Source: Bacteroidota bacterium (lineage in GTDB: Bacteria; Bacteroidota; Bacteroidia; Palsa-948). From it: DNA of 64,000 nucleotides. Shown here one piece after another: positions 13,759 through 36,716 of this stretch. Below the pieces are notes generated by a model, which saw only the letters and a program-made list of their open reading frames with translations, made no database searches and was not told the DNA's origin. The stretch lies in assembly GCA_016213405.1 (NCBI GenBank), contig JACRAM010000116.1, positions 269-64,268 of the forward strand, read 5' to 3'. The position numbers were made by a program, and so were the translations under genes. The first letter of the stretch is position 1; each line of letters starts with the position of its first letter.

Positions 13759-13817
13759 CGTATTTCATAGGGAAAACAATCATTTTTTCTCCCTACATTT
13801 TACGCATCAAAATTTTA

Positions 13818-14095: not shown

Positions 14096-15556
14096 TCATG
14101 CAGCATCCTGAATTACTTTTTCAATGCCAGAAAAAGTCACTTTATCTCCTTCAATCATAAAAGGTATGCGGATGCGGTCAATGTTTTCTGCAATCCAGAC
14201 ATCTTTCATTTTCCAATCTCTAAAATTGTCATTAGAGATGATGTAACATTTATCTGACTTAGCTTTTTTAATAAAAAACTCATCGGCTTCCGTGCGTGAA
14301 GGAGCTTCGTGAAAGATGATTTGCTTATCGGCTATCATCTTGCTTAAAATGGTTACATCGGCTGATTTTCTTTTCAGACCAGGGTCACCAATGATGATGA
14401 TGTCTTTAAATTGCTGGCGATGCAATTCATCCACTACTAACTTAAGGTTGCTGCAATGGGGCTTATCATCTGCATTTTGGTTTTCTCTTTGTCTGTAATT
14501 TTCGTAAGCCACATTATTGCCGTCCACATAAATTTTCTGATTTGAAATCCTCCACACCTCAAAATATTCTCCGTCCGAATCAAAAATTCCGTATTGCTTG
14601 ATTTCATTTCCTTGTGTTAAGAAAGAACGGATTTCATCTTCGGTGTTTAATTTTTTCGTGAACCAATCCGGGAAAGTGCGGGTACTGTCCTCTTTTGTGA
14701 TAAACTTAAATTCTTCTTCCTTTTGATTCAGAAGTTCTTTCAATTTTTTAAGCGAAAGTTTTTTGCCGTTCTCCGCGCTCTTTAAAGCAATCATCATTAC
14801 AACCTGGTCGGAACTGTACATTCCTTTTGCTGACTTTTTAAGACCGACATAATGGTCGTATTCGTATTTGCTATGTATTTTCAAATGCTTTGCTTCCTGA
14901 TACTCTTTAATCTGCTCGAAGCCCATCTTAACAGCGTTGATGTAGTCCTCCGCGTAAGTAAATCCTTTGAGTTTCGCTTCGTCATAAGTTATCCTATCTG
15001 AAAATCCTAAGAAGAACGCTTTATCAAAGTCCCCGAAATCTTTAAACCCTTTTGCTGTGGCAAACTCGCATATCTTTATTGGCGTATCGTAGTCGCTCAA
15101 AATAAAATCCTGCGGTATCAACCCCTTGTTCTTTTCGCAACGCTCTTTGAACTTCTCATAAGAATCAAGGAATCCGAGTTTCTGCGCTTTGGCGTAAAGT
15201 GTTTTGTCCACAACTCCTGTCTTTTTACAATCCTGATATTCCTTGTAAGCGCTGATACCCGCTTTATGTGCGTCATAAAAACTTTCTGCATCGGGAAAGT
15301 CAGCTTTAACAGCATCCTCATAGTCCTCAAGCGATTTGAAATTATTGCTGTCAATGCGGTAAAGGACTTGGCTTTCGAGAAACAGAAATTCGGTTGGATG
15401 TTTTCCCTCTGAACTATTCTTTTCAGTTCGCAGAACAAATTTGACTTCATACTCCTGAAGCATCTTGATAAACCCTTTGATGTCTTTTACTCGTAAAGAT
15501 TTGAAGTCAGGAGTATCTTCAATCTCCACATAGTTGTACCTGTTTGTGCGTGCCAT
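14096..15556 (-). CDS. 486-aa protein with N-terminal GF-containing repeats (roughly 30 aa each) and a C-terminal NYN/Zc3h12a-like (PIN-fold) ribonuclease domain
   Basis: The C-terminal block IYVDGNNVAY...IIIGDPGLKRKSADVTILS...YIISNDNFRDW resembles the NYN RNase signature (v.DGsNVa). The N-terminus has repeated motifs such as DAHKAGISAYKEY, AKAQKLGFLDSYEKF, ATAKGFKDFGDFDKAFFLGF, AKLKGFTYAEDYINAVKMGFEQIKEY. Confidence 0.5.
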   Translation of the reverse strand: MARTNRYNYVEIEDTPDFKSLRVKDIKGFIKMLQEYEVKFVLRTEKNSSEGKHPTEFLFLESQVLYRIDSNNFKSLEDYEDAVKADFPDAESFYDAHKAGISAYKEYQDCKKTGVVDKTLYAKAQKLGFLDSYEKFKERCEKNKGLIPQDFILSDYDTPIKICEFATAKGFKDFGDFDKAFFLGFSDRITYDEAKLKGFTYAEDYINAVKMGFEQIKEYQEAKHLKIHSKYEYDHYVGLKKSAKGMYSSDQVVMMIALKSAENGKKLSLKKLKELLNQKEEEFKFITKEDSTRTFPDWFTKKLNTEDEIRSFLTQGNEIKQYGIFDSDGEYFEVWRISNQKIYVDGNNVAYENYRQRENQNADDKPHCSNLKLVVDELHRQQFKDIIIIGDPGLKRKSADVTILSKMIADKQIIFHEAPSRTEADEFFIKKAKSDKCYIISNDNFRDWKMKDVWIAENIDRIRIPFMIEGDKVTFSGIEKVIQDAA

Positions 15557-17912: not shown

Positions 17913-18641
17913 TTATTCAGGTGCGTAATATTTTTTCAGCCACTTCGGATAGTTTGGAGCAGTGAAAATATTTTTTCCATTTCTCAGCTCTGCCATCGTT
18001 TCAAAATTCGTTGAGTTATCAATCAGGTAAGCGCTGGCTGATGCCTTTGCCGTTTTGGAAAAAAGTTTCAGCGATCTGAAATACCGCTGCTCAATCTTTT
18101 TATCATCCACATCGTGTCCGCCTTGCTTTACCCTCAGTTTAACCCGTTCAATGTTTAAATGCCAGTCGTTTGTAAATACAAAATAACAATAGGTTTTATA
18201 TCCTTTCTTTCTTGCTTGTTCCAGTAATTTGAGTTTTGAAGGATGGGATAAAACCGTTTCATAGCAAAACGATTGTTTGCTTTCAATAAGTTTTTCCGAG
18301 AGATACGAAGCAATAAAAGAAGCGATGTATGAATTCAATTCACCTTTTCGGATGTTCATTTTCAAAACACCGCCTTGAATATTTATTTTTTTGAGAAAAG
18401 ATTTATCCTGTATTTTTTTGAGAATACCCGATTGCCGGATGTGTTTTTTGAAGTCCTCATCCGAAACTTTTACCCGATAGGCATTAAAATGAAACCGAAG
18501 CGATTCAGAAAGTTTTTGTTCAATCTCATCCGCGTTCACATATATTTCGGTGTGAATGTAGGATTTGCTGCGTAGAAAATTAAAGAGATGGGTTTTTCCT
18601 GAGCCGTTAGGACCGGCAAACATTCTAAAACGCGGCTGCAT
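17913..18641 (-). CDS. P-loop NTPase, zeta-toxin/AAA_33-like (putative toxin kinase)
   Basis: Walker A FAGPNGSGKTHL. The C-terminal motif RVKLRVKQGGHDVDDKKIEQRY resembles the zeta-toxin family R..R...GGH.V....I..RY block. About 240 aa and preceded by a small gene. Confidence 0.45.
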   Translation of the reverse strand: MQPRFRMFAGPNGSGKTHLFNFLRSKSYIHTEIYVNADEIEQKLSESLRFHFNAYRVKVSDEDFKKHIRQSGILKKIQDKSFLKKINIQGGVLKMNIRKGELNSYIASFIASYLSEKLIESKQSFCYETVLSHPSKLKLLEQARKKGYKTYCYFVFTNDWHLNIERVKLRVKQGGHDVDDKKIEQRYFRSLKLFSKTAKASASAYLIDNSTNFETMAELRNGKNIFTAPNYPKWLKKYYAPE

Positions 18642-18865: not shown

Positions 18866-20035
18866 TCATCCAAAATACCTCTGCATCAAACTCTGAAACA
18901 AATTCTCCAACTCTCTTTCACTTTCTCTTTGCTTCTCACGCAGTTTTTCTACGCGCTCCACCAGCGAGGCGAATTTTTGTTGGAGTGAAAGAGGTGGAAG
19001 AATAATTTTTAAACTTCTTAAGGATTCTGTATTAATATTAAAATTACCAGCAGTAGTTTTTGCTCTTCGTAACATTTCCCCTCTGTATGAAGCGTATGAA
19101 AAATGGAATTGTAAAAAAACTGGAAGTACGATTGACAAACTTTGTAATCGCGCTCTTATTAAGTAAGACGCATAAATAAATTCTTCTTCTTTGCTAAATA
19201 TTGCACATCTTCCAATATATTCTGGATTCCCATTTGACCTTACAAAGAGAATATCTCCATTTTTTAATTTTAATTTTTCAATTTCATTCGGTTCGGGTTT
19301 GCAATATTTCAAATCGTCTTCGTTAATACTTCCTCCGATAATGTTTGGAATTCGTAAAACTGGCAAGAACCCTTTTTGAAATTTTGTTGAGCACTGAAGC
19401 GAAGTTCCATATTTTAGTCCTTCCACTAATTCTCCAAATGTTTTTATGTCCCATTCTTTCTCATTCCTCACCGGGTCTCCAAACATTTCAAGAAAGGCAG
19501 ATTGAAGAAATTGTTCTGTGAGTTGGTTTGCTTGTTTGCGCTTTTGCCGCGCTGCATCGGCTTGCTCAAGGATGCTGGCGATTTTTTGTTGGGTTTTTAA
19601 ATCGGGAACAGGAATCTCAATTCGAGATAATCCATCTGTATTAATATTTTGTTGAACTCCGCCTTTCTTATTACTTAAAATTTGTTTCCAGTAAAAATTA
19701 GAATGGGTAAAAGCACCAAAATATTTCGGATAGATTTTCTTTGTATCAAATCTTAACCTGATAAGATATGAAGCGAAAACTTCTTTAGAATTTTTACCAA
19801 AATAAATATGGGCTTTCCCAACAGAACCACTTCTTGCAATAATACAATCTCCGTCTTGAAGCAAATATCGTGGAACTTCTTTTTCATTTATTAAAACTCC
19901 AGGGACTGTTGCATAATCAACTTTTCCATATTCATCAATATCAGTAACGCGAATAAACCCAACTCCGTTCCTTTCTGGAATTGCACTACCTGTAAATCCA
20001 TAACGGATTTCGGATACTAATTCTCCTAATTTCAT
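18866..20035 (-). CDS. hsdS: Type I restriction-modification specificity subunit HsdS (two target-recognition domains)
   Basis: 389 aa with duplicated TRD architecture and conserved HsdS inter-TRD helices (LSLQQKFASLVERVEKLREKQRESERELENLFQSLMQRYF). Contiguous with hsdM. Confidence 0.9.
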   Translation of the reverse strand: MKLGELVSEIRYGFTGSAIPERNGVGFIRVTDIDEYGKVDYATVPGVLINEKEVPRYLLQDGDCIIARSGSVGKAHIYFGKNSKEVFASYLIRLRFDTKKIYPKYFGAFTHSNFYWKQILSNKKGGVQQNINTDGLSRIEIPVPDLKTQQKIASILEQADAARQKRKQANQLTEQFLQSAFLEMFGDPVRNEKEWDIKTFGELVEGLKYGTSLQCSTKFQKGFLPVLRIPNIIGGSINEDDLKYCKPEPNEIEKLKLKNGDILFVRSNGNPEYIGRCAIFSKEEEFIYASYLIRARLQSLSIVLPVFLQFHFSYASYRGEMLRRAKTTAGNFNINTESLRSLKIILPPLSLQQKFASLVERVEKLREKQRESERELENLFQSLMQRYFG

Positions 20036-21544
20036 TTACAAACTTTTCTTTATTCCTTTCACATAATCTGCTATTTCTTCTTCCAGCATTAAAATCTTAT
20101 CCATAATCTTTTCCGGCTTTTCGTATTCAACCACTTCATGCTTCACTTCCTTGTAGCGGGAAATGCTGAGGTCGTATTTATTTTTTCTGATTTCATCCTC
20201 TTTCACCAGCACCACATTCTTTCCTGTTTTGCGTTCAGGATATTTTTTCAGGATGTCAGAAATATCGTTTTCTGAAATCTTCTGGCGCTTATCGTCCAAT
20301 GAAAAACCATCAGCACTCATATCGTAAAACCAAACTTTGTCGGTTATTCCGCCCTTGGTGAAAATCAAAACTGCGGTACTTACTCCTGCATACGGTTTGA
20401 AAACGCCCGATGGCATGGAAATAATTCCTTCTAATTTGCATTTATCCACAAGTATTTGCCTCACTCCCTGATGCGCGTTGCTTGTGCCGAACAAAACGCC
20501 ATCGGGAACAATCACCACAGCGCGTCCGCCTGTTACCAGCAAGTCATAGATCAGTTCCACAAAAAGAAGTTCGGTCTTACTGGTTTTTGTGCTGAACCGT
20601 TCGTTCACATCGCTTTCATCAATGCTTCCCTTGAAAGGAGGGTTGGCGAGAATCACATCGTAACATTGTTTTTCTGAAAATTGTTTGGAGAGCGCATCGG
20701 CATATTTGAAATTTGGATTATCCACACCGTGAAGCATCAGGTTCATCGCACCCATACGCACCATCGTGGCATCAAAGTCAAATCCGGTAAGCGCACGGCT
20801 CTTTAGGAACTCATGCAATTTCGGGTTAGTGATCTTATCACCTATCAGATTATGCGCCTTGCCTTCTTCATCGTAAGTGAGAATATCGGGTGATGTGTTG
20901 CTCTCCAAAATATGTTCGTAAGCTGAGACCAGGAATCCGGCAGTACCCGCAGCAGGATCGCATATACGCTCGCCTATCTTCGGGTCAATGAGTTTGGTCA
21001 TCATGCGGATGATGTGACGCGGGGTGCGGAACTGCCCGTTTTTTCCGGCAGTAGAAAGTTGTCCGAGCAGGTATTCGTAGAGGTCGCCCTGCACATCAAT
21101 ATTCTGCTCGCTGATGTGCATGTCGTCAATAATCTTGACAGCTTCCTGCAAGAGCGATGCTTTGGGTATGCTGAACATGGCATCTTCCATGTGCTGAGTG
21201 AAGGAACTGGTTTCACTTCCGAGATTGCGTAGGAACTCAAACACGGTGTCGCGCACATGCCGGAGCATTTCATCGCCCGGCAACTGGCTCCAGTAACTCC
21301 AACGGCATTTTTCTTTGTCAATTTTTCTTCCTCCAACATCCATTTTTCCGATGAACACGGATTTGAAATCGGTCTTCCTTCGCTTGGCAGCAGCAGCGCG
21401 CGCATTGTCCATATCTTCCAGCCGTTTAAGGAAAATCAAATAACTCATCTGCTCTATGGCAGTAAGCGGATTGCTGATACCTCCGCTCCAGAAACGGTTC
21501 CAGAGGGCATCTACTTGGGATTTGAGGGCGGGGTTGGTGAGCAT
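20036..21544 (-). CDS. hsdM: Type I restriction-modification N6-adenine DNA methyltransferase HsdM
   Basis: 502 aa; HsdM N-terminal domain; SAM-binding DPAAGTAGFL; catalytic NPPF in ILANPPFKGS. Confidence 0.93.
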   Translation of the reverse strand: MLTNPALKSQVDALWNRFWSGGISNPLTAIEQMSYLIFLKRLEDMDNARAAAAKRRKTDFKSVFIGKMDVGGRKIDKEKCRWSYWSQLPGDEMLRHVRDTVFEFLRNLGSETSSFTQHMEDAMFSIPKASLLQEAVKIIDDMHISEQNIDVQGDLYEYLLGQLSTAGKNGQFRTPRHIIRMMTKLIDPKIGERICDPAAGTAGFLVSAYEHILESNTSPDILTYDEEGKAHNLIGDKITNPKLHEFLKSRALTGFDFDATMVRMGAMNLMLHGVDNPNFKYADALSKQFSEKQCYDVILANPPFKGSIDESDVNERFSTKTSKTELLFVELIYDLLVTGGRAVVIVPDGVLFGTSNAHQGVRQILVDKCKLEGIISMPSGVFKPYAGVSTAVLIFTKGGITDKVWFYDMSADGFSLDDKRQKISENDISDILKKYPERKTGKNVVLVKEDEIRKNKYDLSISRYKEVKHEVVEYEKPEKIMDKILMLEEEIADYVKGIKKSL

Positions 21545-21545: not shown

Positions 21546-24500
21546 TTATCTGGTCAATGGGATTTTCTTAAAATCACCTTCATCTAAAAAGGCGAATTTT
21601 CTTTCAAATAACCCTGCAAGTTTCTTGTTTGCCGTAGCAAAAATAATCTGACGATTCTCATTAATAACAATCTCTCTTAAATAATCCAAAAACGAAAGAA
21701 TATTCATGTCATCCGTATAAGTTACCGGATCATCAAACAGTAGGATATTTGGAGCTTTGTTAATTTTTTTGTTCAGTGATAAAAATATTGAAAGGGCTAA
21801 TGCAGATCTTTGACCAGAACTAATTTTTGTTATTGGTCTATCTGTTTCACCACTAAGCAAATTTAAATACACTTTACCGTCTCTAAAAACAACGTCTTTA
21901 AATTCATAAGGAGAATGAATATTTGAAAATACATCCTGAATCTCTGAAAGATTTTTAGCAATAAAATCAGTCAATACTTTTTCCTCCGAATCTTTTTCCA
22001 AGATTTCTCCGATTACATCTAATGCATTCTTTAATCTTATAGTTTTAGGAATTAATCCTTCATTGGCTTTTAACGCTACTGATTTTATTTGTTCAGCTAA
22101 TTTATATTGAGTTAAAAGAGCTTGGTCATTTTTTATATTTAAAAGTAATGAAGAAATATTTTGAATTTTTAAACTAATTTCCATTATTTTTTCTTCAGGA
22201 GTCAATTCCAAATACTGCTTTATCTCGTTAAAACACTTTATAGCAAACTCAATAATTGACTTTCTTTCACTAAGGTGTAAATGGAATTCTGAATAATTAG
22301 GTCTGCTTTCAAGTGTGGTAACATAGCTCTTTAGTTTTTCATTCAGAGATTCAATCTTAGAAGTTAATATGGCAATCTCCTCATTTATTTTATTTGCATC
22401 ATTTTCAAGTAGTATTTTATAATTGCTTTGCAGAGTAATATCTTCAGGAATAAATTTCATTTCTGGAAATATCTCCGTGATCCTATTTTTTAATTGCTTG
22501 AAACTATCTTCATTGACCCCGTCATTACTCATTACGGCTTTAAGATTAACTAAATTGTCATAATCATTTTTACATTTTTCAAGATTCTCTATATCGCTAT
22601 TTATGTTTTTCATTATTATTTTTAATGAATCAGCCCCCCTGTTCGCTTTATATTGAAAGGCGGTAATTTTTTCAATCAGCAATACCTGATTTAATAAATA
22701 TTCTGTCGATATTATTATCTGAGTAGTGTTAGTTAAACTTTGATTTAATTTTTCCAATTTCATTGAATCTGCAAGTTCTGAAACCGCTCTATTAATTCTT
22801 TGAAACAATTCATCATGTGAAGCAAAATGTGTCTCGCATAAAGGGCAATCTGTTAATTCATTATCATGATGAAGATAATCCCTACCTTTTGCTTTAATCT
22901 CAACAATAATATTCTGAATAAAATTCAATTTCTCCTTTGAAGAAATTATTTCCAATTCTATCTTAGCTTTATCCTCCTTGCACTTATTTAATTCGTTTAA
23001 ATAATTCGCTTTATACTCTTGAAGTGTTCTCGCTTCATTTTCAAAAATGGATTTATCAATTTTTACTAATTGTTCAATTATCGCATTAAGAGTATTTATT
23101 TGTTTTGCGCGTTCATCTATCTTTACCCTAAGACCATCTACTTTAAAATATTCAGGATGAGCAAAATATTTTTCACTTTCAAGTAGTAACTGGTATTTTA
23201 AATCAATAGGCGCTTTTGTTTCAATTATTTTATTTTTCTCCTTAAGCATAATCTCAAAACTATTAAAAGCAGCGGAAAACTCTTGCTCTAAGAGCTCGAT
23301 CCTTTCTTTTTCTACAATCCAATCCTTCAAACAAACCAATTTGTATGCTGGAAGGAGTTGTAGCAGGCTATTAAGTAAATTTTGCACTTCAACAATTTCC
23401 TTTTCAATTTCTGAAATATTTAATAGTGAAAATTTGGGAATCTCCTTATTCCATTTATAGTCTTTACAAACAGTAACAAATGTTTTGTAAGATTCTTCAA
23501 TATTGAGATTTTGTTTTTCCTCGTTTATAGTTTTTTCTGCATTTTGTATTTGGAGTTTATTGTTTTCAATCTGAGCAAAATAATCCCTATGTATAGGATT
23601 AAGCCGATCTTTGAACCCATTTAATCTTCCCTTTATTCTGCCAAATTCAGAACCAAGAGCAATTCTTGAAAGATATTTTATTATGGCATTGCTGTCTGTA
23701 TTATTTTGAAAATTAAATGCTGCATCAGAATAATAGAAATTGTATCTACCAAAAGACTCCTGAAGCTGGTTGCCTCTTGAATAGTCATTTTCATACCAAA
23801 GCAAATCCCTTTCCCGATATTTAGCATTATCGCTCGGAGAATACTCGTCTTCAACTCGTTCCAGATTGTAAAATCCTCTAATGCTTCCCGCAGTTTCATT
23901 ATATGCAGGATTTCTAATGGATTTACCACACAACAACATTTCAATGGCTTCCAACAGCGAGGTCTTTCCAACACCATTTACACCATCTATCAAATTAACT
24001 TTTCCAAAAACATAGTTTCTTTCGCCAATTGGGTATTGCCGGTAGTTGTCGGTTAGCTTTATCTCATTTATATAGTTTAAATGTAATCCCTGTGAGTTTT
24101 GTTTTTCTGGCTGAACATATTCTTCCTCCTTTAAAACCTTTTCATTCACGAATCTATCGATGGCTTCTGTATACGGTTCGGCATTATATACTTCATTTAA
24201 ATCTACTGAATTAAGTTTCTTTACCCAATCAACAACAATATTTTTCTGAACTTCCTTTTCTGTTTTTTTATACTCGAAAAATTTCTTGAATTCCTCCGGC
24301 TTAAATAAATACTTCCTTGTTAAAATATCATTTTGCTCGATTATTTTTTTAGAAACAGGGTCATATGCATCTCGTAAAAATATTAAATAGTAGTTCCATT
24401 GTAAATAACTTGGATTATTATAATAATCGGAAACTAAATATTTTTCTTGATACTCGTTTAAATCCTTAGGGAGTGTTTCATCGTAATCAAAATAGAAAAC

Positions 24501-24614
24501 TGCTGCTGTTTTTTTGTCTGGCTGATATTCCGCCTTAAGTATCTTATGATGTGGCACTTCAATTATGTTTTTGAATTTATTGCCAATAATATTCTCAACT
24601 ATATCTTTATTCAT
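21546..24614 (-). CDS. SMC/Rad50(SbcC)-like ABC ATPase with a coiled coil and a CxxC zinc hook, plus an unknown N-terminal domain of about 200 aa. Embedded in the Type I R-M operon
   Basis: Walker A GVNGVGKTSLLEAIEMLLCG. Long E/K/L-rich coiled-coil regions flank DCPLCETHF (a Rad50/RloC-type hook). C-terminal ABC signature SSGQRSALALSIF, Walker B ILLFDDP, then a D-loop. Start taken at the internal Met (MNKDIVENIIG), 4 nt after the upstream gene. Confidence 0.7.
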   Translation of the reverse strand: MNKDIVENIIGNKFKNIIEVPHHKILKAEYQPDKKTAAVFYFDYDETLPKDLNEYQEKYLVSDYYNNPSYLQWNYYLIFLRDAYDPVSKKIIEQNDILTRKYLFKPEEFKKFFEYKKTEKEVQKNIVVDWVKKLNSVDLNEVYNAEPYTEAIDRFVNEKVLKEEEYVQPEKQNSQGLHLNYINEIKLTDNYRQYPIGERNYVFGKVNLIDGVNGVGKTSLLEAIEMLLCGKSIRNPAYNETAGSIRGFYNLERVEDEYSPSDNAKYRERDLLWYENDYSRGNQLQESFGRYNFYYSDAAFNFQNNTDSNAIIKYLSRIALGSEFGRIKGRLNGFKDRLNPIHRDYFAQIENNKLQIQNAEKTINEEKQNLNIEESYKTFVTVCKDYKWNKEIPKFSLLNISEIEKEIVEVQNLLNSLLQLLPAYKLVCLKDWIVEKERIELLEQEFSAAFNSFEIMLKEKNKIIETKAPIDLKYQLLLESEKYFAHPEYFKVDGLRVKIDERAKQINTLNAIIEQLVKIDKSIFENEARTLQEYKANYLNELNKCKEDKAKIELEIISSKEKLNFIQNIIVEIKAKGRDYLHHDNELTDCPLCETHFASHDELFQRINRAVSELADSMKLEKLNQSLTNTTQIIISTEYLLNQVLLIEKITAFQYKANRGADSLKIIMKNINSDIENLEKCKNDYDNLVNLKAVMSNDGVNEDSFKQLKNRITEIFPEMKFIPEDITLQSNYKILLENDANKINEEIAILTSKIESLNEKLKSYVTTLESRPNYSEFHLHLSERKSIIEFAIKCFNEIKQYLELTPEEKIMEISLKIQNISSLLLNIKNDQALLTQYKLAEQIKSVALKANEGLIPKTIRLKNALDVIGEILEKDSEEKVLTDFIAKNLSEIQDVFSNIHSPYEFKDVVFRDGKVYLNLLSGETDRPITKISSGQRSALALSIFLSLNKKINKAPNILLFDDPVTYTDDMNILSFLDYLREIVINENRQIIFATANKKLAGLFERKFAFLDEGDFKKIPLTR

Positions 24615-24618
24615 GATA

Positions 24619-26331
24619 TTATCCTTCTTTATTAATTGAATTTGTCGAATAGGCTGATGTGTCCGAAATAGATGGGTAATGTGAGCTAACACACGAAAAT
24701 GTGTTCTCGGTCATTGAAGTCTTTCGCCATACAACAATGCGAGAAAGTGATGGGTCTTGAAAAATATTTTTAATATCACTTAAAGCCTTATTTGCATACC
24801 CTTCACTTTTTTCACCTATATATGCTACGGTTGCTTTATCAATACCACAAATTAGATTATGTAAGTATGTAGGTGTGGCTTCAAACTTTACTTCATCAAT
24901 GAGTTTGCCTTTGAATGTATTAAGAATGGGAGGAAAATCATCTCCCCTGTTGATAAGATGCGTATTTAAATACTCGATAGCCTTTAGCTGATTTAATCTT
25001 TCACTTTCGCCTTCTTCGTCTTCAATAAACGTTGCTCGTTTAATTATCCAGTTCTCGTCCTCTTCAAAAGAATATAAATTGATTATTAAGTGCCATTTGC
25101 TTCCGATTGAATCTATCTTTCCATTACATAAATTAATTAGCCTTTCCTTGTCCACAAAACAAACATTGCTGTCTCTCAAGTAGGCAGAAGTACAACTTTG
25201 TCTATTCAGTAATTCAGTAAATCCATCATTTACAGACTCAATGGGGATAATATCTAAATTATTCCAACCGAATAGTTTTCGTACCTCTGGTTCCGTTTTT
25301 CTTAATTGGGCATTTGGCAAGCCACTTAGTATTGGTTTTTGGCATTGAATCAAATAGATTAATTCTTTTGAGCTCAGATAGAGTGAGTGTTTTTCATTTT
25401 TATTATTTAAATAATACAGACCTTTTGCATGATTATTAATGAATTTAGCATCGGAGTTAAAATCTATATGGTGGGTTTTAATGTGAATTCCGCTTCTGCT
25501 GAATTTCGCTATCAAAGGAGATAGAGCCAAAGTCGTTCCTTTCGCCCAATTTAAACATATCAAATCCTTTAATGAATAGTCTAATATTTTTTCTCTAAAT
25601 CGTTTGAATTCTGGGCTATTTGGTTTCGGATTAAGCTGTGGATTTAAGATAATATATGGATTATCTCTCCACTTATTCTCAAGTAAGCTATCTATATTTA
25701 CATGGGTCGAAAAATTCATAGCTTCCGAGCATATTAGAGAGAAGAGATAAATAGAATTTTCATTATTTCTTAAAACATAAATTTCATTTCCTTTTATGTA
25801 ATTATTTTTCTCCAAGTCATTTGTCCAAACACCCATGTGCTCAGTTTTAAATTGAATCAATACAAATAATTTATTATCGCATTTAAAAAGATAACATAAA
25901 GGGTCGAAGAAATTTCCATTTGCTGTTAGTAATGTTTCATCAAAATAGATGACAACTTCATCGCTTGTGTGTGTGCTTTTGAAACTCCTAAGCAAATCCT
26001 TGTTTATTGATTCGCATCCTATAGCGAATAATTTTCTGCTTGCAGGATGAAGCGTAGGTGTTGAAATAAGTTCAGATAGGACTGACCATGGGCAAGAATA
26101 TTCTGGTGTCATAGCAACAGAAACATCATTATCCTTAGCTAATTTAAAAAAGGCTTTAAATTTATTTTGTACTTCTGTTTGATTTGAATTTTGGAAACAT
26201 TGAGCAGTTGCCGTAAAATCTCCTTTATGTTGGTATAGTAGAATAGAATAGGGCGTTGTGCTATACTCTAATGCTTCTAAGTCTAAGTTATTAACTCCAA
26301 TATTTAGTCTATCTATAAATTTGAAGATCAT
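24619..26331 (-). CDS. Hypothetical 570-aa protein with no recognisable domain. Translationally coupled between hsdR and the SMC-like ATPase
   Basis: Long ORF. Its start overlaps the hsdR stop (ATGA) and its stop lies 4 nt before the ATPase start. No nuclease, phosphoesterase or P-loop motif was identified by eye. Confidence 0.6.
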   Translation of the reverse strand: MIFKFIDRLNIGVNNLDLEALEYSTTPYSILLYQHKGDFTATAQCFQNSNQTEVQNKFKAFFKLAKDNDVSVAMTPEYSCPWSVLSELISTPTLHPASRKLFAIGCESINKDLLRSFKSTHTSDEVVIYFDETLLTANGNFFDPLCYLFKCDNKLFVLIQFKTEHMGVWTNDLEKNNYIKGNEIYVLRNNENSIYLFSLICSEAMNFSTHVNIDSLLENKWRDNPYIILNPQLNPKPNSPEFKRFREKILDYSLKDLICLNWAKGTTLALSPLIAKFSRSGIHIKTHHIDFNSDAKFINNHAKGLYYLNNKNEKHSLYLSSKELIYLIQCQKPILSGLPNAQLRKTEPEVRKLFGWNNLDIIPIESVNDGFTELLNRQSCTSAYLRDSNVCFVDKERLINLCNGKIDSIGSKWHLIINLYSFEEDENWIIKRATFIEDEEGESERLNQLKAIEYLNTHLINRGDDFPPILNTFKGKLIDEVKFEATPTYLHNLICGIDKATVAYIGEKSEGYANKALSDIKNIFQDPSLSRIVVWRKTSMTENTFSCVSSHYPSISDTSAYSTNSINKEG

Positions 26332-29099
26332 TAGGCTACCAATTTCCTTGTTAACTCAACAAGTTGTTTTATTTCTTCTTCTGTAAATAATTTTTCCACC
26401 GCATTCATTCCAAAATTTGTAAATGGTGCTTCATATAGATCAGCTTCTTCCAGTTTCCGTTTCTGATAAAACACAGTTTGCACAGTTCGCAAAAAGCGGG
26501 TTTGGTCGGCATTGTAATTATGTTCCAGTATAAACGCATCAAACGCCTTGCGTACAATCTGCTCGTAGCTCGGCAAGGTTTCTAATTTCAGCACATGCTT
26601 TAAAAAGTCAACCAAACTTCCAACGCGCACACCAAACGCTTTCAGCATGTTGTCTTCGTTCAAAGTAATTTCATCCGTTCCAAGTTCAATTTCCAGAGTG
26701 CTTTCCAAAGAAATTAAATCATCTAATGTAACGGCTTCACCTTTTTTCAGTTTTTGTATCGCAGTATTTTTGCTTGCCAAATGCTCAATCTTTTCTTCCA
26801 CTTTCTTTTTGTATTCCTCCACCATCATTTTCTGTCCTTCCTTTCCTCCTTGTTTTACAATCACCCACTTGCGGGAATCAATCACATCATCCAAACCAAG
26901 TTCAACAATCAGAGAAGGTTTCTCACGCTTGTATTTCATCAGAGGGGAAAGGGCGGTCTTTGCTTCATCAATGTTTTTCAGTTGGGGCTGGGTCCAAAAC
27001 TTTGTGGAGAGAACGGCTTCACGGTAAGTAATTTTTTCCTGCACTTGCGGTAAATTCGGTGGAAGCAAATCCACATCTTCACGAATGGAGTTGATGAGCG
27101 TGGCAGTATCTTTCTTTTGCAGCATGTAAAGCCCGCAGCGTTCCATCTTGCTGGTAAAAAATGCTTCCGCCATATTCACATCGGGGACAAAACGCAGGAG
27201 CGGAGCCGCTTTCATTCTCATCAGTTCAATTTTTTGAGGCGTAAGGAATTTCCAGAAATCATCTTCCCATGTTTCGCGCACATCTTTGATGTTTTTTTTC
27301 ACAGTGAAAGAGTCAAGTGGAATCCGGGCAATGTAGGCACGGCACTCTTTCACGATGCGTTGAAAGTCCTCTCCGCTCTGGTCGCCAATTAAAATTTCCA
27401 ACTTGCTCAGTCGCGTATTGAAAATGGAAACAAGAATCGGAATCTGCTTTATGCCGTTCTCATCTTTGGGCATCATGTTGAAATGCTCAAAGTTTTCCCA
27501 GAAGTCAACAATGAGAAAATTATCTTTTTTATTTTCAGGAAGCCATTCTAAATGCTTACACGCTTCCAAACTCCTTGTTCCGCGCCCGATCATCTGCCAG
27601 AATTTTATCTGCGAGCCAACAGGTTTCATAAATGCAAGGTTCATCACTTCGGGAACATCCACACCCGTATCGAGCATATCTACTGAGATCGCAATGCGGG
27701 GCATATCCTGTTTCTTGAATTTTGCCAGTAAATCACTTGCGCGCTCCACACCGGATGTAATCACACGCGCAAGCTGCCCTTTGTGTTCGGGATACATTTC
27801 ATTGAAGGTTTCTTCCAAACGGATGGCGTGTTTCTGAGTAATAGCAAATATGATGGTCTTTGCAGGAAGCTGTCCTCCGGCATCCTTGTGGCAAACATCC
27901 ATGAATTCTTCCCACTGCCGGACAAGGGTATCCTTATTCGTTACCTTTTTTTCCAAATCTGTCCCTTCAAAGTTGATGTCTTCGGGATTGATGCCTCGTT
28001 CTTTCAGCGATTCCTGATCTGCTTCGGATAAATCCACTCCTTTTATTCCCTTCCGCTGAAATTTTGTTTGAGCGGAATACACATTGTAATCGGCAAGGTA
28101 TCCTTCCTTAACTGCATCATCATATTTATAAAGATAAGTTGGTGCAGTTCCATCACACTCAAAAAACCGGAAAGTATCTCGGTCAAGAAAATGCGCGGGG
28201 GTTGCCGTTAAGCCAATTTGAACCGCATCAAAGTAGGCAAGTACATCGGTGTATTTATTGTAAATGCTTCTATGGCACTCATCGGAAACAATCAAATCAA
28301 ATTCGGCAGGATTAAATTTTTCATAGCATAACTCCAGCGTTTGCAATGTGCTTACATACACGCGGGTGGTTTTATCAATATTGAAAGTGCGGATGCGGGT
28401 CCTTGCTTCGTTTGGCAAATGAACTTTGAAACCATCGGTCAATGCCTGGTCAACCAAACTGTCTCTGTCAGCAAGAAATAAAACTTTTTGCGCCTGCCGT
28501 GCTTGCAGGAAAACATCTATCAGAGCCATTATTGTTCTTGTCTTTCCGGTTCCGGTTGCCATCACGAGCAATGCCTTTCGCTTTTTTCTTTTTTCAACGG
28601 CTTCGGAAATCCTTCTGATAGCTTCAATTTGGTAGGAACGATTAACAATATTGTCCTTGATCTTTATTTCGTTGAGCGGAAGTTTGTTTTGTTTGAGGTG
28701 AAGTAGTCGTTCAAGATTCTCTTTAGAAAAAAATCCGGCAACTAATCTTTCAGGATATTGTTCCGTGTCCCAGAAAAATATTTCTTCCCCATTCGCCATG
28801 AAAGCAAAAGGGCGGAAGGATTGTTTTTTGGCGATTTCGGTTACATAACGAAGCACTTGCTCTTTGCCTACTCTTGCATCGCGCCTTGTTTTCTTGGCTT
28901 CAATTACTGCCAATACTTCACCGTTGCTCCTGAATAAACAATAATCAGTAATCCCGCTTTGCGGAGAAGCATCGTAACCTTCAACCGGAATTTCAAAGCC
29001 AACCGATGTGCGGTCAGCCAGGTTCCATCCCGCCTTGACCAGATCAGGGTCAATGAGGTTGTAACGGGTTTGGGATTCGTTGAAGGTGGAAATACTCAT
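26331..29099 (-). CDS. hsdR: Type I restriction enzyme R subunit HsdR
   Basis: 922 aa. N-terminal PD-(D/E)xK nuclease (YCLFRSNGEVLAVIEAKK). SF2 helicase Walker A LVMATGTGKT, DEAH-type box IVSDECHRS, and helicase C-terminal motifs. Confidence 0.93.
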   Translation of the reverse strand: MSISTFNESQTRYNLIDPDLVKAGWNLADRTSVGFEIPVEGYDASPQSGITDYCLFRSNGEVLAVIEAKKTRRDARVGKEQVLRYVTEIAKKQSFRPFAFMANGEEIFFWDTEQYPERLVAGFFSKENLERLLHLKQNKLPLNEIKIKDNIVNRSYQIEAIRRISEAVEKRKKRKALLVMATGTGKTRTIMALIDVFLQARQAQKVLFLADRDSLVDQALTDGFKVHLPNEARTRIRTFNIDKTTRVYVSTLQTLELCYEKFNPAEFDLIVSDECHRSIYNKYTDVLAYFDAVQIGLTATPAHFLDRDTFRFFECDGTAPTYLYKYDDAVKEGYLADYNVYSAQTKFQRKGIKGVDLSEADQESLKERGINPEDINFEGTDLEKKVTNKDTLVRQWEEFMDVCHKDAGGQLPAKTIIFAITQKHAIRLEETFNEMYPEHKGQLARVITSGVERASDLLAKFKKQDMPRIAISVDMLDTGVDVPEVMNLAFMKPVGSQIKFWQMIGRGTRSLEACKHLEWLPENKKDNFLIVDFWENFEHFNMMPKDENGIKQIPILVSIFNTRLSKLEILIGDQSGEDFQRIVKECRAYIARIPLDSFTVKKNIKDVRETWEDDFWKFLTPQKIELMRMKAAPLLRFVPDVNMAEAFFTSKMERCGLYMLQKKDTATLINSIREDVDLLPPNLPQVQEKITYREAVLSTKFWTQPQLKNIDEAKTALSPLMKYKREKPSLIVELGLDDVIDSRKWVIVKQGGKEGQKMMVEEYKKKVEEKIEHLASKNTAIQKLKKGEAVTLDDLISLESTLEIELGTDEITLNEDNMLKAFGVRVGSLVDFLKHVLKLETLPSYEQIVRKAFDAFILEHNYNADQTRFLRTVQTVFYQKRKLEEADLYEAPFTNFGMNAVEKLFTEEEIKQLVELTRKLVA

Positions 29100-30305: not shown

Positions 30306-30959
30306 TTATTTTCTTAAACTTTCTCCAGTGAGTATTAGTTCATTGAACATCTCTTTAAATCTATCCTCAATGCGAGCTCCATATTCCTGTTCGATCAATT
30401 TCACATTAAAGTTGCTCGTAATGTAAGTCATCGAACCATTGTCCGTAAATTCTCTATATCGTCTTGTCATAATATCTTTCATTACATTTCTGGTTGTGCC
30501 GTAATGAAGTGCCTGCCTATTTTCATCTCCTATGTCATCAAAGAAAATATTTCCTTTGTAATAATTACTCAAACATTTCGCACCAGATGTTTCGTAATCT
30601 GCAACTATTTCATCGCAATTAAACATTCTGAATCCTTTGCCAGACAACAGTAAACGATTAGAAGCGAGGGCTCGGAATATTTTCAGAGCCAATGTTTTGC
30701 CTGTTCCCTTTCCCCCATGAATAAAAAGTCCCTTTCCTAAATCGCCTTTGAATTTATCATCATTGAAGAAATAATAAATGAGTTGTGTGTATAGATTTAA
30801 CCTTTCTTCTTCTAATATAAATTTCTTTTCACCAGAACTGATCGGCATAAACTTTTGTCCTAAATACAAAATTGCTTCCATGACTTCATTAAAGTTGTAA
30901 CGAACCTGCTTAATGGTTACGGGTTGATGGTTTATTATATTAAGCAGGTCTAAATTCAT
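30306..30959 (-). CDS. P-loop ATPase, DnaC/IstB-like (putative helicase loader or replication ATPase of the element)
   Basis: Walker A FIHGGKGTGKTLAL and Walker B IFFDDIGDE. 217 aa. Overlaps the upstream DUF1376 gene by 4 nt. Confidence 0.5.
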   Translation of the reverse strand: MNLDLLNIINHQPVTIKQVRYNFNEVMEAILYLGQKFMPISSGEKKFILEEERLNLYTQLIYYFFNDDKFKGDLGKGLFIHGGKGTGKTLALKIFRALASNRLLLSGKGFRMFNCDEIVADYETSGAKCLSNYYKGNIFFDDIGDENRQALHYGTTRNVMKDIMTRRYREFTDNGSMTYITSNFNVKLIEQEYGARIEDRFKEMFNELILTGESLRK

Positions 30960-31666
30960 CGTGAAGTATGGTCAATTTTATCTATGTCTATTTTACAGGG
31001 TTTTTGTTTCACATTATTTTGAAAATTATTTTTTTCCCAAGTGCGAACTGAGGCGTGCCAGTCCTTCATTTTGTTTTTCCCTACCATCCAGCCGTTAGAT
31101 TCATAATGATCCATCCATGCCTGAGCATCTACCTGATTATTTCGTTCTTTGCAATACGCCATAATTTCTTCTAAGGTTGGCTTTTGGAATGTTCCCCCTG
31201 CACCCTCTTTTAAATCTTTTATATTGTCTTTTTCAATTTCATGGTCATTGTCAATGTTTGCCTGAGCAAATTTTTTTTTAAAAGAAGATTTTTTTCCACC
31301 TTTAGAACCTGCTGCCGTTCTGACCTTTCGCAGATACTCGTCTCGAATCATCCGGCTGGAAAATATGTATCCGTCTGTATCAATTTTCACCACTTTTTTT
31401 TCTAAAAGTTCATTTAAAAGCGATGAGATTTCTTCCGGACCCCCACTCATCATGCGTGTCAGCGTCAAACAGATTTCAGATTTTGCTTGCACTTTTGGTT
31501 GAGCGGTTGCTTCAATTTTGCTCAAGCAAAATTTTCCGTAATCTTCCGAATCGTGCATCACGCAGAGTAAGTTAATCCACAACCCTTGTGCCGCCAGAGA
31601 ACAACTACTGAGTTTTGTATCACTAAGCCAGTCGCCAGTATAGAATAAGATTGCCGGACGTTTCAT
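30956..31666 (-). CDS. DUF1376 (YdaU-like) replication-associated protein
   Basis: The N-terminus ILFYTGDWLSDTKLSSCSLAAQGLWINLL matches the DUF1376 signature F/Y-x-x-D-W/Y-x-x-D-T-x-x-L-S...G-x-Y/W-x-x-L-L. A C-terminal Trp-rich segment follows. Confidence 0.55.
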   Translation of the reverse strand: MKRPAILFYTGDWLSDTKLSSCSLAAQGLWINLLCVMHDSEDYGKFCLSKIEATAQPKVQAKSEICLTLTRMMSGGPEEISSLLNELLEKKVVKIDTDGYIFSSRMIRDEYLRKVRTAAGSKGGKKSSFKKKFAQANIDNDHEIEKDNIKDLKEGAGGTFQKPTLEEIMAYCKERNNQVDAQAWMDHYESNGWMVGKNKMKDWHASVRTWEKNNFQNNVKQKPCKIDIDKIDHTSR

Positions 31667-33728: not shown

Positions 33729-36716
33729 TTAAGAATGTATGATGAGGTCGGAACTGCCGATTTGCTTGCTTTGTTCAAAAATTTTACTCATAAAGTTCCG
33801 TATCGGCTCTGCAAGTTGCTCCTTGCTTTGCATAAACTTAATCCCGTTTTGAATAAATATTTTTCTAAGCAATTTAGTTTCCGAAACCGATATGCCCCTC
33901 ATTGCAAAATGTCTTTCCGCGATGGCGATGGCTTGCTGTCCGACTGCTTTTTTGAATTCAGCACAATCGTTCTGGATTTCTTTATTGAATATCACGCCCA
34001 ACGCCCTTGACAAAAGCACGCCCGAATATCTGCCCGTCCTGCCGAGAAGAATCAAATCTTCCTGAGTGAACCGAAATTCGGTTGATAAACTAACATCCTC
34101 TGTTTCTCTTATTCTCTCGATAAAAAATAATAATTCTTTTTCGTCTTCTGGAATCGGCTTTCGGTTTTTTGGCGGAACGATGGACAGGTATATGTGTGAA
34201 ATTTTTTTAGGAAAGATAAACGAAAAGTCATTCAGAAAATTAGTTAGCCCTTCTTTGACTAAATCGCTGACCGTCCCCCAACTCAACTGCTCATTGCCAT
34301 TCACAAAAGTTATGCCCGTAGTTCTGCTTAAAGAATCAATAAAAATATTTCCACTTTGATTATAGAAATGCAGTTTGGTTTTTCTTTCAAATATTCCGTT
34401 CAGGATGAAGCGGAATCTCTCCCGTTGAATTCCCCCTACATCTTCCGCCAGTTGTATTGTCGAATCCAGTTTTTTCAAGGTGAATTTCTCGTACCTTTTT
34501 GTGGGAGGTAAGCCGATTAGTTCTCCGCGCTTTTTAACAATAATGATATTTTGGTGAAATAAAATATAATCTGCATCATTAAAAAAATCTTGAGCAACTT
34601 CTCCCTCGAACAAAAAATACAGAACATTCAGTACATTTATGCACCCGATATTTGATAAATTTCCCCCAGTCATTATCTCATACAAAGGGTGGCTGTTCTT
34701 CGATGTTAATATATCCTGTCTTTCGCAGAATTCACATAACTCCTTGTTGGTTCTCAATAAATCTTTCCATTCTTCAGAATATTTATCCAACGCTTTTGCT
34801 TCTTCATCTACTTCTTTATTCAATTCTCTGAGACGAGATAAAATCAAATCTAATTTTGTTACATCAAGTTCTTCATAACTGATTTCATATTTTTTCCCTT
34901 CAGGAAAATATTCCATAGTTAGAAACTTTTCTCCCTTTTTGACTTTTATCAAGTCCTCATAGCCAACTGGAACAACAGTAACATTATCAGAATTTAATTT
35001 TATGATGATGTGCCTGATGATTTCCTTTCTCTTGCCCTCTATGTAGACAGTCGTCATTTTACTGGGATAAAACTTCGGGCTATACTGCTCAAGGATGTAT
35101 TTAATTTCGGCAATCTTATTCTTCTTTTTTTCTTCTTTCCGACTTCCTGTAAACATTTGAACTTTGGGATAAAGAGATTTAAGCCACCTGTCAGATAATT
35201 GCTGATAAAATAATTTTTCATCGAAATCCTTTTCAATGATGTGCCAGTATTGGCTTTCTTTTAGGAATTTTACATATGAAGGGAGGATGTCGGCTAATCG
35301 TGGCTGTTCTATGTTTCGTGTCTTGAATTTTTCTAAATCTAAAATGCTAAGACATTCGCTGTATAGGAATGATGTCATATTTTTGAAAATCAGATTTCTC
35401 CTGATTCTATTTATGAGCAATACCAAATTGAAAAAACTATGTGTTTCTACACTTTTAATGCTAAAAGATTTATGTATTTCCAATTCATCATGAATTTTAT
35501 TGATATTCAAGAGCCCTCTTTTTTTCACCGCGATGTTTACTTCTGCTTCTACTTTTATGTTCCTAAGTTTGAATTCGCGTTCCAGAAAATCGCAAATCTT
35601 CTGTGATGGGATATGGGAATAATTTCGGATGGTATCACCGTTGATTTCTTTCCCTTCCTTTATTAGTTTCCAAATTACATCTACAATTTTTTCTTGGGAG
35701 ATTACTCCTTTTAACTGTCGCGTAAATGTTTGTCGGGTTTTTCTGACCGCATTCCTTATAGCACTTTTTTCCGCCTGTTCTTCCTGAAATTTTCTAAGTT
35801 CTTCAATTTCATATTTGCTTTGTATTTCGCATCCTCTCAGGAACTCGCAAACCTCCTCATGTATTTCATACGGAATAATTTTTCGGATGCTGTCATACTC
35901 AATTCCCTTTTCTTCTATCAATGCTATCGCAATTATTTCTTTGGTTTGTTCTTCCGAAAGCTTTGGGAAAATTGTATTCAGCACAATGGTTAATACCACC
36001 TCATTTTCATCCTTTTCGTTGCATTTTTTTTCTTCCCAATGCCTGACAAATTCTTTGCAAAATTCCGACTGAACTTCGTATGTTCTGAAGTTGGAAATTC
36101 TCTGATAATATTTTTTCTCTCTGTTGCAGAAGCAGGCGACCGCATCGTCTAAAATCAACTGGGGCTTCTTCGAGCTGATGAAATGTTTTATTCGTGTGTA
36201 AAAAGAATAATGAAAGGAGTGTATTTCTTTTCGGAAATCTTTTTCAAACTGTTTTATATTATTTACAATCCTTTTTGCGTAGATGGATGACTTTTCACTC
36301 TCTAATTTGATGTCTGGAAATAATTGTTGTTTTAGTAAATCGGTTATCTTCTCACGATATGCTATTTTTTTTACTCCTATTGCATTGTTAATCCGATTAG
36401 ATGTCCTGATTAAAATCCCATCCAGTTCAAATTCTGGAACGAACCTAAAATCTGCATTTGGCGGTATCTCGTCAATCAAACTGAATGCAAAAAAGAATTC
36501 AGGTGAAACGGGCAAGTCTGAATTTGTATGCTTCCCGATAATCGCTTTTGCTTTTTCAATATTTATTTCCTGCTCAAGATGTTTTTCAAGATTTTCCCTG
36601 TTGAGCCGAACCGCTTCTTCAACCCCAGAAGACAGGTAATCAAAAAATTCCTGTTTTACCGATGCCTGCAATGCCGTTGTTGATTTCATCTGCTTAATAT
36701 TTTTCGATAACGTCAA
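33729..36716 (-). CDS. Hypothetical large protein (995 aa), no recognisable domain
   Basis: Long ORF overlapping the upstream 421-aa gene by 23 nt. No P-loop, nuclease or polymerase motif found by eye. Confidence 0.6.
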   Translation of the reverse strand: MTLSKNIKQMKSTTALQASVKQEFFDYLSSGVEEAVRLNRENLEKHLEQEINIEKAKAIIGKHTNSDLPVSPEFFFAFSLIDEIPPNADFRFVPEFELDGILIRTSNRINNAIGVKKIAYREKITDLLKQQLFPDIKLESEKSSIYAKRIVNNIKQFEKDFRKEIHSFHYSFYTRIKHFISSKKPQLILDDAVACFCNREKKYYQRISNFRTYEVQSEFCKEFVRHWEEKKCNEKDENEVVLTIVLNTIFPKLSEEQTKEIIAIALIEEKGIEYDSIRKIIPYEIHEEVCEFLRGCEIQSKYEIEELRKFQEEQAEKSAIRNAVRKTRQTFTRQLKGVISQEKIVDVIWKLIKEGKEINGDTIRNYSHIPSQKICDFLEREFKLRNIKVEAEVNIAVKKRGLLNINKIHDELEIHKSFSIKSVETHSFFNLVLLINRIRRNLIFKNMTSFLYSECLSILDLEKFKTRNIEQPRLADILPSYVKFLKESQYWHIIEKDFDEKLFYQQLSDRWLKSLYPKVQMFTGSRKEEKKKNKIAEIKYILEQYSPKFYPSKMTTVYIEGKRKEIIRHIIIKLNSDNVTVVPVGYEDLIKVKKGEKFLTMEYFPEGKKYEISYEELDVTKLDLILSRLRELNKEVDEEAKALDKYSEEWKDLLRTNKELCEFCERQDILTSKNSHPLYEIMTGGNLSNIGCINVLNVLYFLFEGEVAQDFFNDADYILFHQNIIIVKKRGELIGLPPTKRYEKFTLKKLDSTIQLAEDVGGIQRERFRFILNGIFERKTKLHFYNQSGNIFIDSLSRTTGITFVNGNEQLSWGTVSDLVKEGLTNFLNDFSFIFPKKISHIYLSIVPPKNRKPIPEDEKELLFFIERIRETEDVSLSTEFRFTQEDLILLGRTGRYSGVLLSRALGVIFNKEIQNDCAEFKKAVGQQAIAIAERHFAMRGISVSETKLLRKIFIQNGIKFMQSKEQLAEPIRNFMSKIFEQSKQIGSSDLIIHS

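Follow-up and report, generated by a model that had tools for sequence, protein, structure and literature searches.

A probable two-gene Lamassu-type module with a nitrilase-fold candidate effector, nested in a Type I restriction-modification operon of a Bacteroidota bacterium

The DNA considered here, called the window in what follows, is a stretch of 64,000 nucleotides from a Bacteroidota bacterium (contig JACRAM010000116.1, positions 269 to 64,268 of the forward strand). Five open reading frames (ORFs) lie in tight series on its minus strand: hsdR (26331–29099), which is the first gene of the operon, ORF570 (24619–26331, 570 amino acids), a gene for a 1022-residue ATPase (21546–24614), hsdM (20036–21544) and hsdS (18866–20035). 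The two genes lodged between hsdR and hsdM, ORF570 and the ATPase gene, are the subject of this report. An earlier inspection of the letters, made without database searches and referred to below as the sequence-only reading, had placed five packed genes at these positions with near-zero or overlapping junctions, and both the ORFs and a reading of each junction bear this out. The hsdR stop codon and the ORF570 start codon have one base in common (TAATG). From the ORF570 stop to the ATG of the ATPase the spacer is four bases, from the ATPase stop to the ATG of hsdM it is a single base, and hsdM and hsdS abut with no spacer at all. The ATPase is counted from the ATG at 24614; the mechanical ORF reaches further, to a GTG at 24692.

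Judged by their sequences, the three Hsd proteins unambiguously make up a Type I restriction-modification (R-M) system of the EcoAI/EcoEI-like kind. HsdR, the restriction subunit, matches ResIII (1.4e-37), EcoEI_R_C (1.5e-20) and HSDR_N in Pfam, REase_I in PADLOC (2.7e-145) and restrict_EcoAI in NCBIfam (1.3e-79). HsdM, the methyltransferase, matches Pfam N6_Mtase (3.3e-63) and HsdM_N and PADLOC MTase_I (9.1e-171), and HsdS, the specificity subunit, matches Pfam Methylase_S in two stretches (6.2e-29) and PADLOC Specificity_I (1.2e-96). The pair enclosed by these genes differs from them in composition. Its G+C content is 0.30–0.33, against 0.43–0.46 for hsdR and hsdM, which marks the pair as a cassette of separate origin. 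Full-length homologues of ORF570 and of the ATPase each number in the hundreds, so both are real genes and not chance ORFs; identical database entries, from a Bacteroidetes metagenome-assembled genome, label both as hypothetical protein. We infer that the pair is co-transcribed with hsdRMS. A promoter and terminator scan was uninformative: it gave 43 sigma-70 sites where 42 were expected, with a consensus that may not apply to a Bacteroidota host.

The two genes occur as a unit. The sequence-only reading had proposed checking whether they co-occur, and they do: in species-representative genomes of Bacteroidota, Firmicutes, Proteobacteria and Archaea, 38 loci carry an ORF570 homologue that is full-length or nearly so, and all 38 have an ATPase homologue directly downstream of it in the same orientation. 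The gap between the two is about 0–160 nt in the loci where the match reaches the start of the ATPase. The pairing also holds when ATPase homologues of 26–28% identity are taken as the starting point, and on two plasmids. The hosts include many Bacteroidota, Desulfosporosinus, Syntrophomonas, Leptospira, Melioribacter, Comamonadaceae and a halophilic archaeon, as well as, for the ATPase, a Hodarchaeota metagenome-assembled genome. No homologue was found in phage genomes. In 42 of 49 loci the G+C content of the pair lies below that of its flanks. The pair is mobile and patchily distributed, and it resides in defense islands.

The ATPase is a Rad50/SbcC-like ABC protein. The four motifs that the sequence-only reading had quoted are all present in the translation. 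These are a Walker A motif, GVNGVGKT (23961–23984), with residues invariant in the homologue alignment; a single zinc hook, CPLC (22836–22847, residues 590–593), in which C590, P591 and C593 are invariant among 49 homologues; an ABC signature, SSGQR (21807–21821), of which S-G-Q is conserved in the same alignment; and a Walker B motif, LLFDD (21729–21743), of the hhhhDD form found in long Lamassu systems. Within the latter, D961 is invariant, F960 is nearly so and D962 belongs to the family consensus, F-D-D-P being kept. An AlphaFold (AF2) model with a mean predicted local distance difference test score (pLDDT) of 85 orders the protein into an alpha/beta domain (residues 1–165), a linker (168–174), a Rad50-type head, a long antiparallel coiled coil with CPLC at its apex, and a C-terminal ABC head lobe that ends at about residue 1019.

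Among the PADLOC defense models, those that match this protein best are models of LmuB, the SMC-like subunit of Lamassu. The top four PADLOC models for the window ATPase are all LmuB (PDLC03865 at 6.8e-32, covering residues 340–1007, PDLC03859 at 2.9e-27, PDLC03868 and PDLC03861); mad3 ranks behind them, and JetC, DndD, PtuA and AriA all stand at E-values of 2.7e-4 or weaker. Two distant homologues, one from a Polaromonas IncP plasmid and one from a haloarchaeal megaplasmid, each have LmuB models as their top three PADLOC matches. By this measure, the ATPase fits LmuB profiles better than those of the other defense ABC and SMC families. A 2025 Lamassu census (Haudiquet et al. 2025, bioRxiv 10.1101/2025.04.02.646746) defines long Lamassu by the combination of an hhhhDD Walker B motif with a lone CxxC hook and gives LmuB a length of about 800 residues. 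The window ATPase has both motifs and measures about 830 residues once its N-terminal extension is removed. In the PDB, searches by structure and by sequence lead to Rad50, SMC5/6, MukB, JetC and the Lamassu LmuB proteins (9hqx, 9hqu, 9uxh), a set that is consistent with the LmuB assignment and does not discriminate among the Rad50, SMC and LmuB families.

The N-terminal extension is itself informative. The alpha/beta domain (24120–24614, minus strand, residues 1–165) carries conserved LQWNYYL and RKF motifs and leads into the linker, which is modeled with low confidence. In five of five homologues tested, Pfam MComp1 (PF20289, entitled ABC-three component system Middle Component 1) is matched at residues ~57–114, with E-values of 3.5e-7 to 1.4e-5 that lie near the gathering threshold, and the same family is a precomputed annotation in three further homologous loci (L043, L048 and L049; loci are numbered in this way throughout). 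Three-gene Lamassu was earlier called ABC-3C, and its middle component is LmuC. By sequence similarity, then, the domain is probably an LmuC equivalent (ABC-3C middle component 1) fused to LmuB. A fusion of this kind would account for the lack of a third gene: in Lamassu other than type I, a small middle-component protein is encoded between lmuA and lmuB, whereas the gap between ORF570 and the ATPase, at 4 nt, leaves no space for a separate LmuC gene. Two irregular database records touch on this part of the protein. In L055 (4247–9117) frameshifts have seemingly broken up the ATPase gene, leaving three parts of 219, 233 and 593 residues, likely a database artefact, and in P0377 an ORF570-type protein reads through into the ATPase N-terminal domain, apparently another.

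ORF570 belongs to a family of proteins of ~570–600 residues (about 190–300 clusters) with a fixed architecture. Its AF2 model, built on 50 sequences, has a pLDDT of 90 and a predicted template modeling score (pTM) of 0.90. When this model was searched with Foldseek, 19 out of 19 PDB matches below E=1e-3 were enzymes of the nitrilase superfamily, among them the formamidase AmiF, CJ1056C, N-carbamoylputrescine amidohydrolase and the glutaminase domain of NAD synthetase. The nitrilase-superfamily (C-N hydrolase) fold of the N-terminal domain (25327–26331, minus strand, residues ~1–335) was reached by two methods, and the four-layer alpha-beta-beta-alpha sandwich is present. The sequence-only reading had recognized no motif in ORF570. 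It was right inasmuch as the protein has no sequence match in Pfam, PADLOC, NCBIfam or the PDB, where neither ORF570 nor its profile found a relevant entry (phmmer, hmmsearch); its PHROGs match is weak (E 0.0024) and leads to a family of unknown function. It missed, however, a conserved set of Glu-Lys-Glu-Cys residues of the nitrilase type.

The candidate catalytic residues are Glu77 in PEY (26098–26106), Lys162 in QFK (25846–25854), Glu174 (25810–25812) and Cys201 in ICSE (25723–25734), all four of which are among the 31 residues that are invariant in the 50 sequences. In the model, E77 and K162 stand at strand ends and C201 at a strand-to-helix elbow, places that would correspond to those of the catalytic Glu-Lys-(Glu)-Cys residues in nitrilases. 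The spacings from E77 to K162 and from K162 to C201 are 85 and 39 residues, compared with 71 and 33 in PH0642, and the PEY, QFK and ICS motifs that hold these three residues persist in relatives of only 26–30% identity. The fold as modeled and the conserved residues together point to a divergent C-N hydrolase, which would probably be active.

The remainder of ORF570 forms a C-terminal domain (CTD; 24622–25320, minus strand, residues ~338–570). The model shows a helical bundle, an acidic loop (EDEEGESE, 25000–25023, residues 437–444) and a small beta-sheet over residues ~338–553, and the domain is presumed to serve in docking and oligomerization. It resembles the CTD of long LmuA proteins as published, the comparison being one of descriptions. 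The layout is also that of LmuA, with an enzymatic N-terminal domain and a CTD of ~230 residues encoded directly upstream of an lmuB-like gene. Four of 50 ORF570 relatives match the PADLOC LmuA model PDLC03850, weakly (best E 2.7e-6). A profile search with the CTD across 1.84 billion representative proteins gave 305 clusters. The best 150 of these all have the CTD joined to the same N-terminal domain, which makes the CTD family-specific; the shorter matches inspected, of ~410 residues, are N-terminally truncated copies that begin at the QFK motif.

Taken together, these results lead us to regard the pair as probably a self-contained two-gene member of the Lamassu/ABC-3C abortive-infection family, in which a nitrilase-fold effector is coupled to an LmuB-like sensor with LmuC fused to it, and which happens to be nested in a Type I R-M operon. 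As such the pair is a divergent variant of a known family and not a new kind of system. Long Lamassu provides the closest parallel. It has in common with the pair a Rad50/SbcC-like ATPase of comparable size (~800 residues, against ~830 here without the fused domain), whose Walker B motif is of the hhhhDD form and whose zinc hook is a single CxxC; an effector gene directly upstream, whose product combines an enzymatic N-terminal domain with a docking CTD that has an acidic loop and a beta-sheet; a middle-component domain; and a setting in defense islands. It differs in having three genes (LmuA-LmuC-LmuB) where there are two here, the presumed middle component forming the N-terminal part of the ATPase, and in that ORF570 escapes both the PADLOC LmuA models, apart from the four weak matches among its relatives, and the Pfam CTD families. 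The sequence-only reading had proposed an SMC/Rad50-like ATPase as sensor and the upstream ORF as effector, and this is indeed the architecture of a known abortive-infection family. It had also presented the pair as previously undescribed, and that claim does not hold up. The top matches of the ATPase are LmuB, MComp1 is detected in its homologues, four of 50 ORF570 relatives weakly match one LmuA model, and a 2023 review, with reference to Millman 2022 and Krishnan 2020, already counts C-N hydrolase as an LmuA effector domain. The reading itself had said beforehand that hits to known Lamassu components would speak against novelty, and such hits are largely what was found. On the whole, the observation that had been made at this locus is confirmed and its interpretation is partly supported.

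Several results weigh against assigning the pair to Lamassu. The LmuB profiles match the ATPase with modest scores (~100 bits) and partial coverage, and the closest solved structures by sequence are Rad50 (3.8e-11), LmuB coming in at only 2.1e-4 (9hqu_A). The N-terminal domain of the window ATPase, which the sequence-only reading had left unassigned, can now be named from its homologues, but the window copy itself has no MComp1 match in Pfam. A search for stand-alone copies of that domain yielded nothing but short proteins, of which several are evidently ATPases cut short, and one candidate, P0390, sits in an ATPase gene that is apparently fragmented by frameshifts. It is because the window copy falls below significance and no genuine stand-alone copy was found that we put the fusion forward as an inference. 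On the effector side, none of 50 ORF570 relatives scanned singly has a Pfam match, CN_hydrolase (PF00795) and the ABC-3C CTD families included, and PADLOC finds no LmuA model in the window ORF570 or in eight further relatives. An hhalign comparison of the ORF570 profile with three real nitrilases, whose sequences were recovered from PDB alignments, was not significant (probability 0.9%); the sole local alignment, also not significant, covers a helix-strand-PE segment and sets E77 on the catalytic E42 of PH0642. Since no link between ORF570 and the nitrilases appears at the sequence level, the nitrilase assignment rests on the fold and the conserved residues. The CTD was not found on any other effector domain among the best 150 of the 305 clusters, which leaves LmuA-style modularity unsupported. 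Finally, the effectors named in the accessible part of the 2025 census are Cap4, Mrr, protease, Sir2, FMO, HNH, SMEK and lipase, with neither an amidase nor a nitrilase among them.

These same points could be explained if the pair formed an independent two-gene family of Rad50-like immune systems, its likeness to Lamassu being due to convergence or to very deep ancestry. An effector and CTD with no significant similarity to LmuA or ABC-3C CTD models, a CTD seen in a single architecture, an ATPase nearer to Rad50 than to LmuB among solved proteins and only partly covered by LmuB models, and an effector type that the census as accessible does not name would all be expected. We nevertheless consider this explanation unlikely. 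LmuB models outrank all other ABC and SMC defense models; homologues of the ATPase show MComp1, whose definition comes from ABC-3C systems; an LmuA model does reach four of the 50 effectors; and C-N hydrolase effectors had already been ascribed to Lamassu/ABC-3C in the 2023 review. Long LmuB, moreover, has itself been reported to be closest to SbcC/Rad50.

SbcC/Rad50 also raises the question of a role in DNA repair. SbcCD and Mre11-Rad50 have a partner gene followed by an ATPase gene, their ATPase is a zinc-hook coiled-coil protein, and they are the proposed evolutionary source of Lamassu. One might thus imagine a housekeeping complex of the SbcCD type in which ORF570 has taken the place of the SbcD nuclease. 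We disfavor this proposal and hold it to be extremely improbable. The SbcD partner is a metallophosphoesterase, whereas the partner here has a nitrilase fold with a Cys-Glu-Lys set, and the pair is a mobile, patchy inhabitant of defense islands. The reading of ORF570 as an SbcD-like nuclease was rejected on the same ground, the protein not being a calcineurin-like metallophosphoesterase; the sequence-only reading, which had seen no such motifs, was correct to set SbcCD aside.

How does the pair relate to the R-M genes that surround it? The sequence-only reading proposed an R-M-associated module, and the distribution of its homologues does not support an intrinsic association. Most of ~48 loci examined have no Type I R-M gene within 10 kb, several have no R-M gene of any kind among their called neighbors, and the plasmid copies have no hsd genes annotated within 7 kb. 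With Type I genes missing from the surroundings of most loci, the pair is autonomous. The view of R-M operons as insertion sites fared better, as the nesting has arisen more than once: at least five loci have the pair nested in Type I R-M, in two R-M families and at two different gene junctions. In the window, as in L001 and L002, the order is hsdR, pair, hsdM-hsdS; the Hsd proteins of L001 and L002 are 72–80% identical to those of the window and the proteins of the pair only 39–50%. In L027 and L028 the Type I family is an unrelated one and the order is hsdM-(rhuM)-hsdS, pair, (DUF4062 gene)-hsdR, and in L031 hsdS is directly upstream of the pair.

Other kinds of R-M genes adjoin the pair elsewhere: Type III mod/res genes in L042, in L016 and L017 genes for a DNA methylase or helicase whose R-M type is unassigned, HinfI-like Type II genes in L047 and L019, and an MmeI-like methyltransferase in L050 and L007, of which a remnant is left in L044. 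R-M families are the most frequent Pfam matches among 119 ORFs flanking the genome loci. The remaining neighbors of the pair include a NACHT protein, AbiJ together with an SMC-like ATPase, a TIR/HEPN island and integrase genes. It has been published that unrelated defense systems nested in R-M operons are a general phenomenon, a pattern known as guilt by embedding. The R-M neighbors of the pair fit this pattern, which supports a role in defense and does not imply functional dependence on R-M.

Some of these loci deserve a closer description. In L047 (5341–13328) and L019 (15849–16685) the pair has on one side a complete HinfI-like R-M system, with a methylase and a restriction endonuclease of 278 residues, and on the other a 132-residue fragment of a second, divergent HinfI-like gene; the arrangement looks like a further insertion into an R-M locus. 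One clade has the pair closely hemmed in. In L050, which is the same as L007 (4915–14109), an MmeI-like helicase/N6-methyltransferase pair stands on one side and a DUF2130 gene on the other, with spacers of 3–20 nt. In L044/L045 (9815–16101) the upstream methyltransferase is reduced to a remnant of 55 residues (L044). L002, which is the locus most closely related to that of the window and is on the same contig as L001, has a gene for an nSTAND NTPase of 1021 residues between the ATPase and hsdM. This gene is flanked by a near-identical duplication of ~125 bp of the 5' end of hsdM (14802–14927 and from 18045 onward), which suggests that the cassette was inserted through recombination at the start of hsdM.

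The recurrence of the nesting invites comparison with PrrC and RloC. There, too, an ABC-type ATPase gene stands amid hsd genes, and RloC also has a coiled coil and a zinc hook. The pair could on this model act as a guard of the R-M system, kept inactive by the Type I complex and fired once a phage anti-restriction factor disables that complex, or else triggered by the DNA ends that restriction makes. The tight translational coupling with hsdR and hsdM would agree with such a role, as would the repeated nesting in unrelated Type I families at two junctions (the window and L002 on one side, L027, L028 and L031 on the other), the frequent presence of Type II, III and IIG genes next to the pair and the reported sensing of DNA ends by Lamassu. 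Even so, we find a guard function of this kind very unlikely, because most members of the family live outside R-M loci, including on plasmids, and because the nesting of unrelated defense systems in R-M operons is general. Nor are the proteins alike. PrrC and RloC are single polypeptides with a C-terminal anticodon nuclease; here the ATPase ends at the ABC C-lobe and the effector has its own gene. Neither the PADLOC scan nor the AF2 model reveals an anticodon-nuclease domain in the ATPase, and PrrC and RloC models are absent from its PADLOC matches, so that identity with either was rejected, as the sequence-only reading had already judged.

There is also a bolder version. The pair would represent a distinct, uncurated branch of Rad50-like immunity in which an oligomerizing nitrilase-fold effector destroys an essential amide-bearing molecule, and DNA ends made by restriction systems of Types I, II, III and IIG would arm the sensor, turning a failed restriction into abortive infection; the repeated, independent nesting beside restriction genes would then reflect a functional relay. 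We think it quite unlikely.

If the pair is the two-gene Lamassu variant that we favor, the solved complexes of short Lamassu (DdmABC/LmuACB of V. cholerae, Salmonella and Bacillus; 9hqu, 9hqx, 9uxh) can be used as an analogy and thus supply a template for its mechanism. In these complexes one LmuA monomer sits on an LmuB dimer with LmuC, and DNA ends or phage replication origins are sensed; LmuA is then released and becomes active through oligomerization driven by its CTD. The sensor-effector logic proposed here would be the same. The components are less alike. Short Lamassu has Cap4 nuclease effectors, an LmuB of ~600 residues with variable or absent zinc hooks and a non-DD Walker B motif, and a separate LmuC (MC3), and its LmuB is only marginally similar in sequence to the ATPase of the window (9hqu_A, 2.1e-4). 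By analogy, the zinc hook would let the ATPase dimerize, and the ATPase heads, together with the fused middle-component domain, would grip one ORF570 molecule by its CTD, keeping it monomeric and inactive. Binding of foreign DNA ends or replication intermediates to the ATPase would cause ORF570 to be let go, and the freed protein could then oligomerize. For activity, nitrilase-fold enzymes need to assemble at least into dimers. The active ORF570 would hydrolyze an essential metabolite or protein group that bears an amide or nitrile, and growth of the infected cell would be arrested.

A precedent for the last step exists in DRT1, a UG/Abi class 3 fusion of reverse transcriptase and nitrilase, in which the nitrilase domain is the abortive-infection effector and its activity is set by the oligomeric state (Neville et al., NSMB 2026, PMC13275509). 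The DRT1 domain belongs to the nitrilase superfamily and has a catalytic tetrad, and its likeness to ORF570 is at the level of the fold. The sensor and regulator differs: DRT1 relies on a protein-primed reverse transcriptase that forms one polypeptide with the nitrilase, and not on an SMC-like ATPase.

Returning to the window, the R-M operon and the pair within it belong to a larger mobile element. An exact 38-bp direct repeat with sharp boundaries occurs at 13722–13759, where it makes up the 5' half of a tRNA-Thr(tgt) gene (13686–13759, minus strand), and again at 39818–39855; the two copies are putative att sites. A tyrosine recombinase (integrase) gene (38351–39625, minus strand; PDB sequence matches to a XerC-like protein at 9e-9 and to IntI4 at 2.5e-8) adjoins the right copy. 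The repeats and the adjoining recombinase place the operon with its nested pair on an integrative island of ~26 kb at tRNA-Thr. Further genes of the island, all on the minus strand, encode a protein of 486 residues whose C-terminal part is an RNase domain of the NYN (Zc3h12a-like) kind (14096–15556) and, directly downstream of hsdS, a Zeta-toxin-like protein of 242 residues (17913–18641); both are possibly additional defense or toxin genes. A two-gene cassette 1.2 kb upstream of hsdR (30306–30959 and 30956–31666, minus strand) encodes proteins of 236 and 217 residues with no Pfam match. Homologues of the 217-residue protein are found directly downstream of the pair, in convergent orientation, in L010 (14851–15408) and L038 (14853–15410). 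An ORF of 995 residues in the island (33729–36716, minus strand) has no match in Pfam and no sequence match in the PDB. Elsewhere in the window, the region 52000–60000 is very AT-rich (G+C 0.28–0.31) and holds four consecutive plus-strand ORFs of ~545–680 residues.

The present findings leave the picture of how SMC-like immune sensors work unchanged. What they add is a probable two-gene variant of Lamassu, which would unite middle component and sensor in one protein and whose candidate effector has a nitrilase fold. Since this effector is recognized by none of the Pfam, NCBIfam and PADLOC v2.0.0 copies used, such loci may stay unannotated or be called incomplete. The locus also provides a clear-cut case of a defense system nested in an R-M operon, and the independent insertions of the pair at different hsd junctions lend backing to guilt by embedding as an approach to discovery. 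Nitrilase domains have only just been shown to act as abortive-infection effectors, in DRT1, and ORF570 would offer a second, independently regulated system in which to hunt for their substrate. It would also provide a test of whether activation driven by oligomerization is general.

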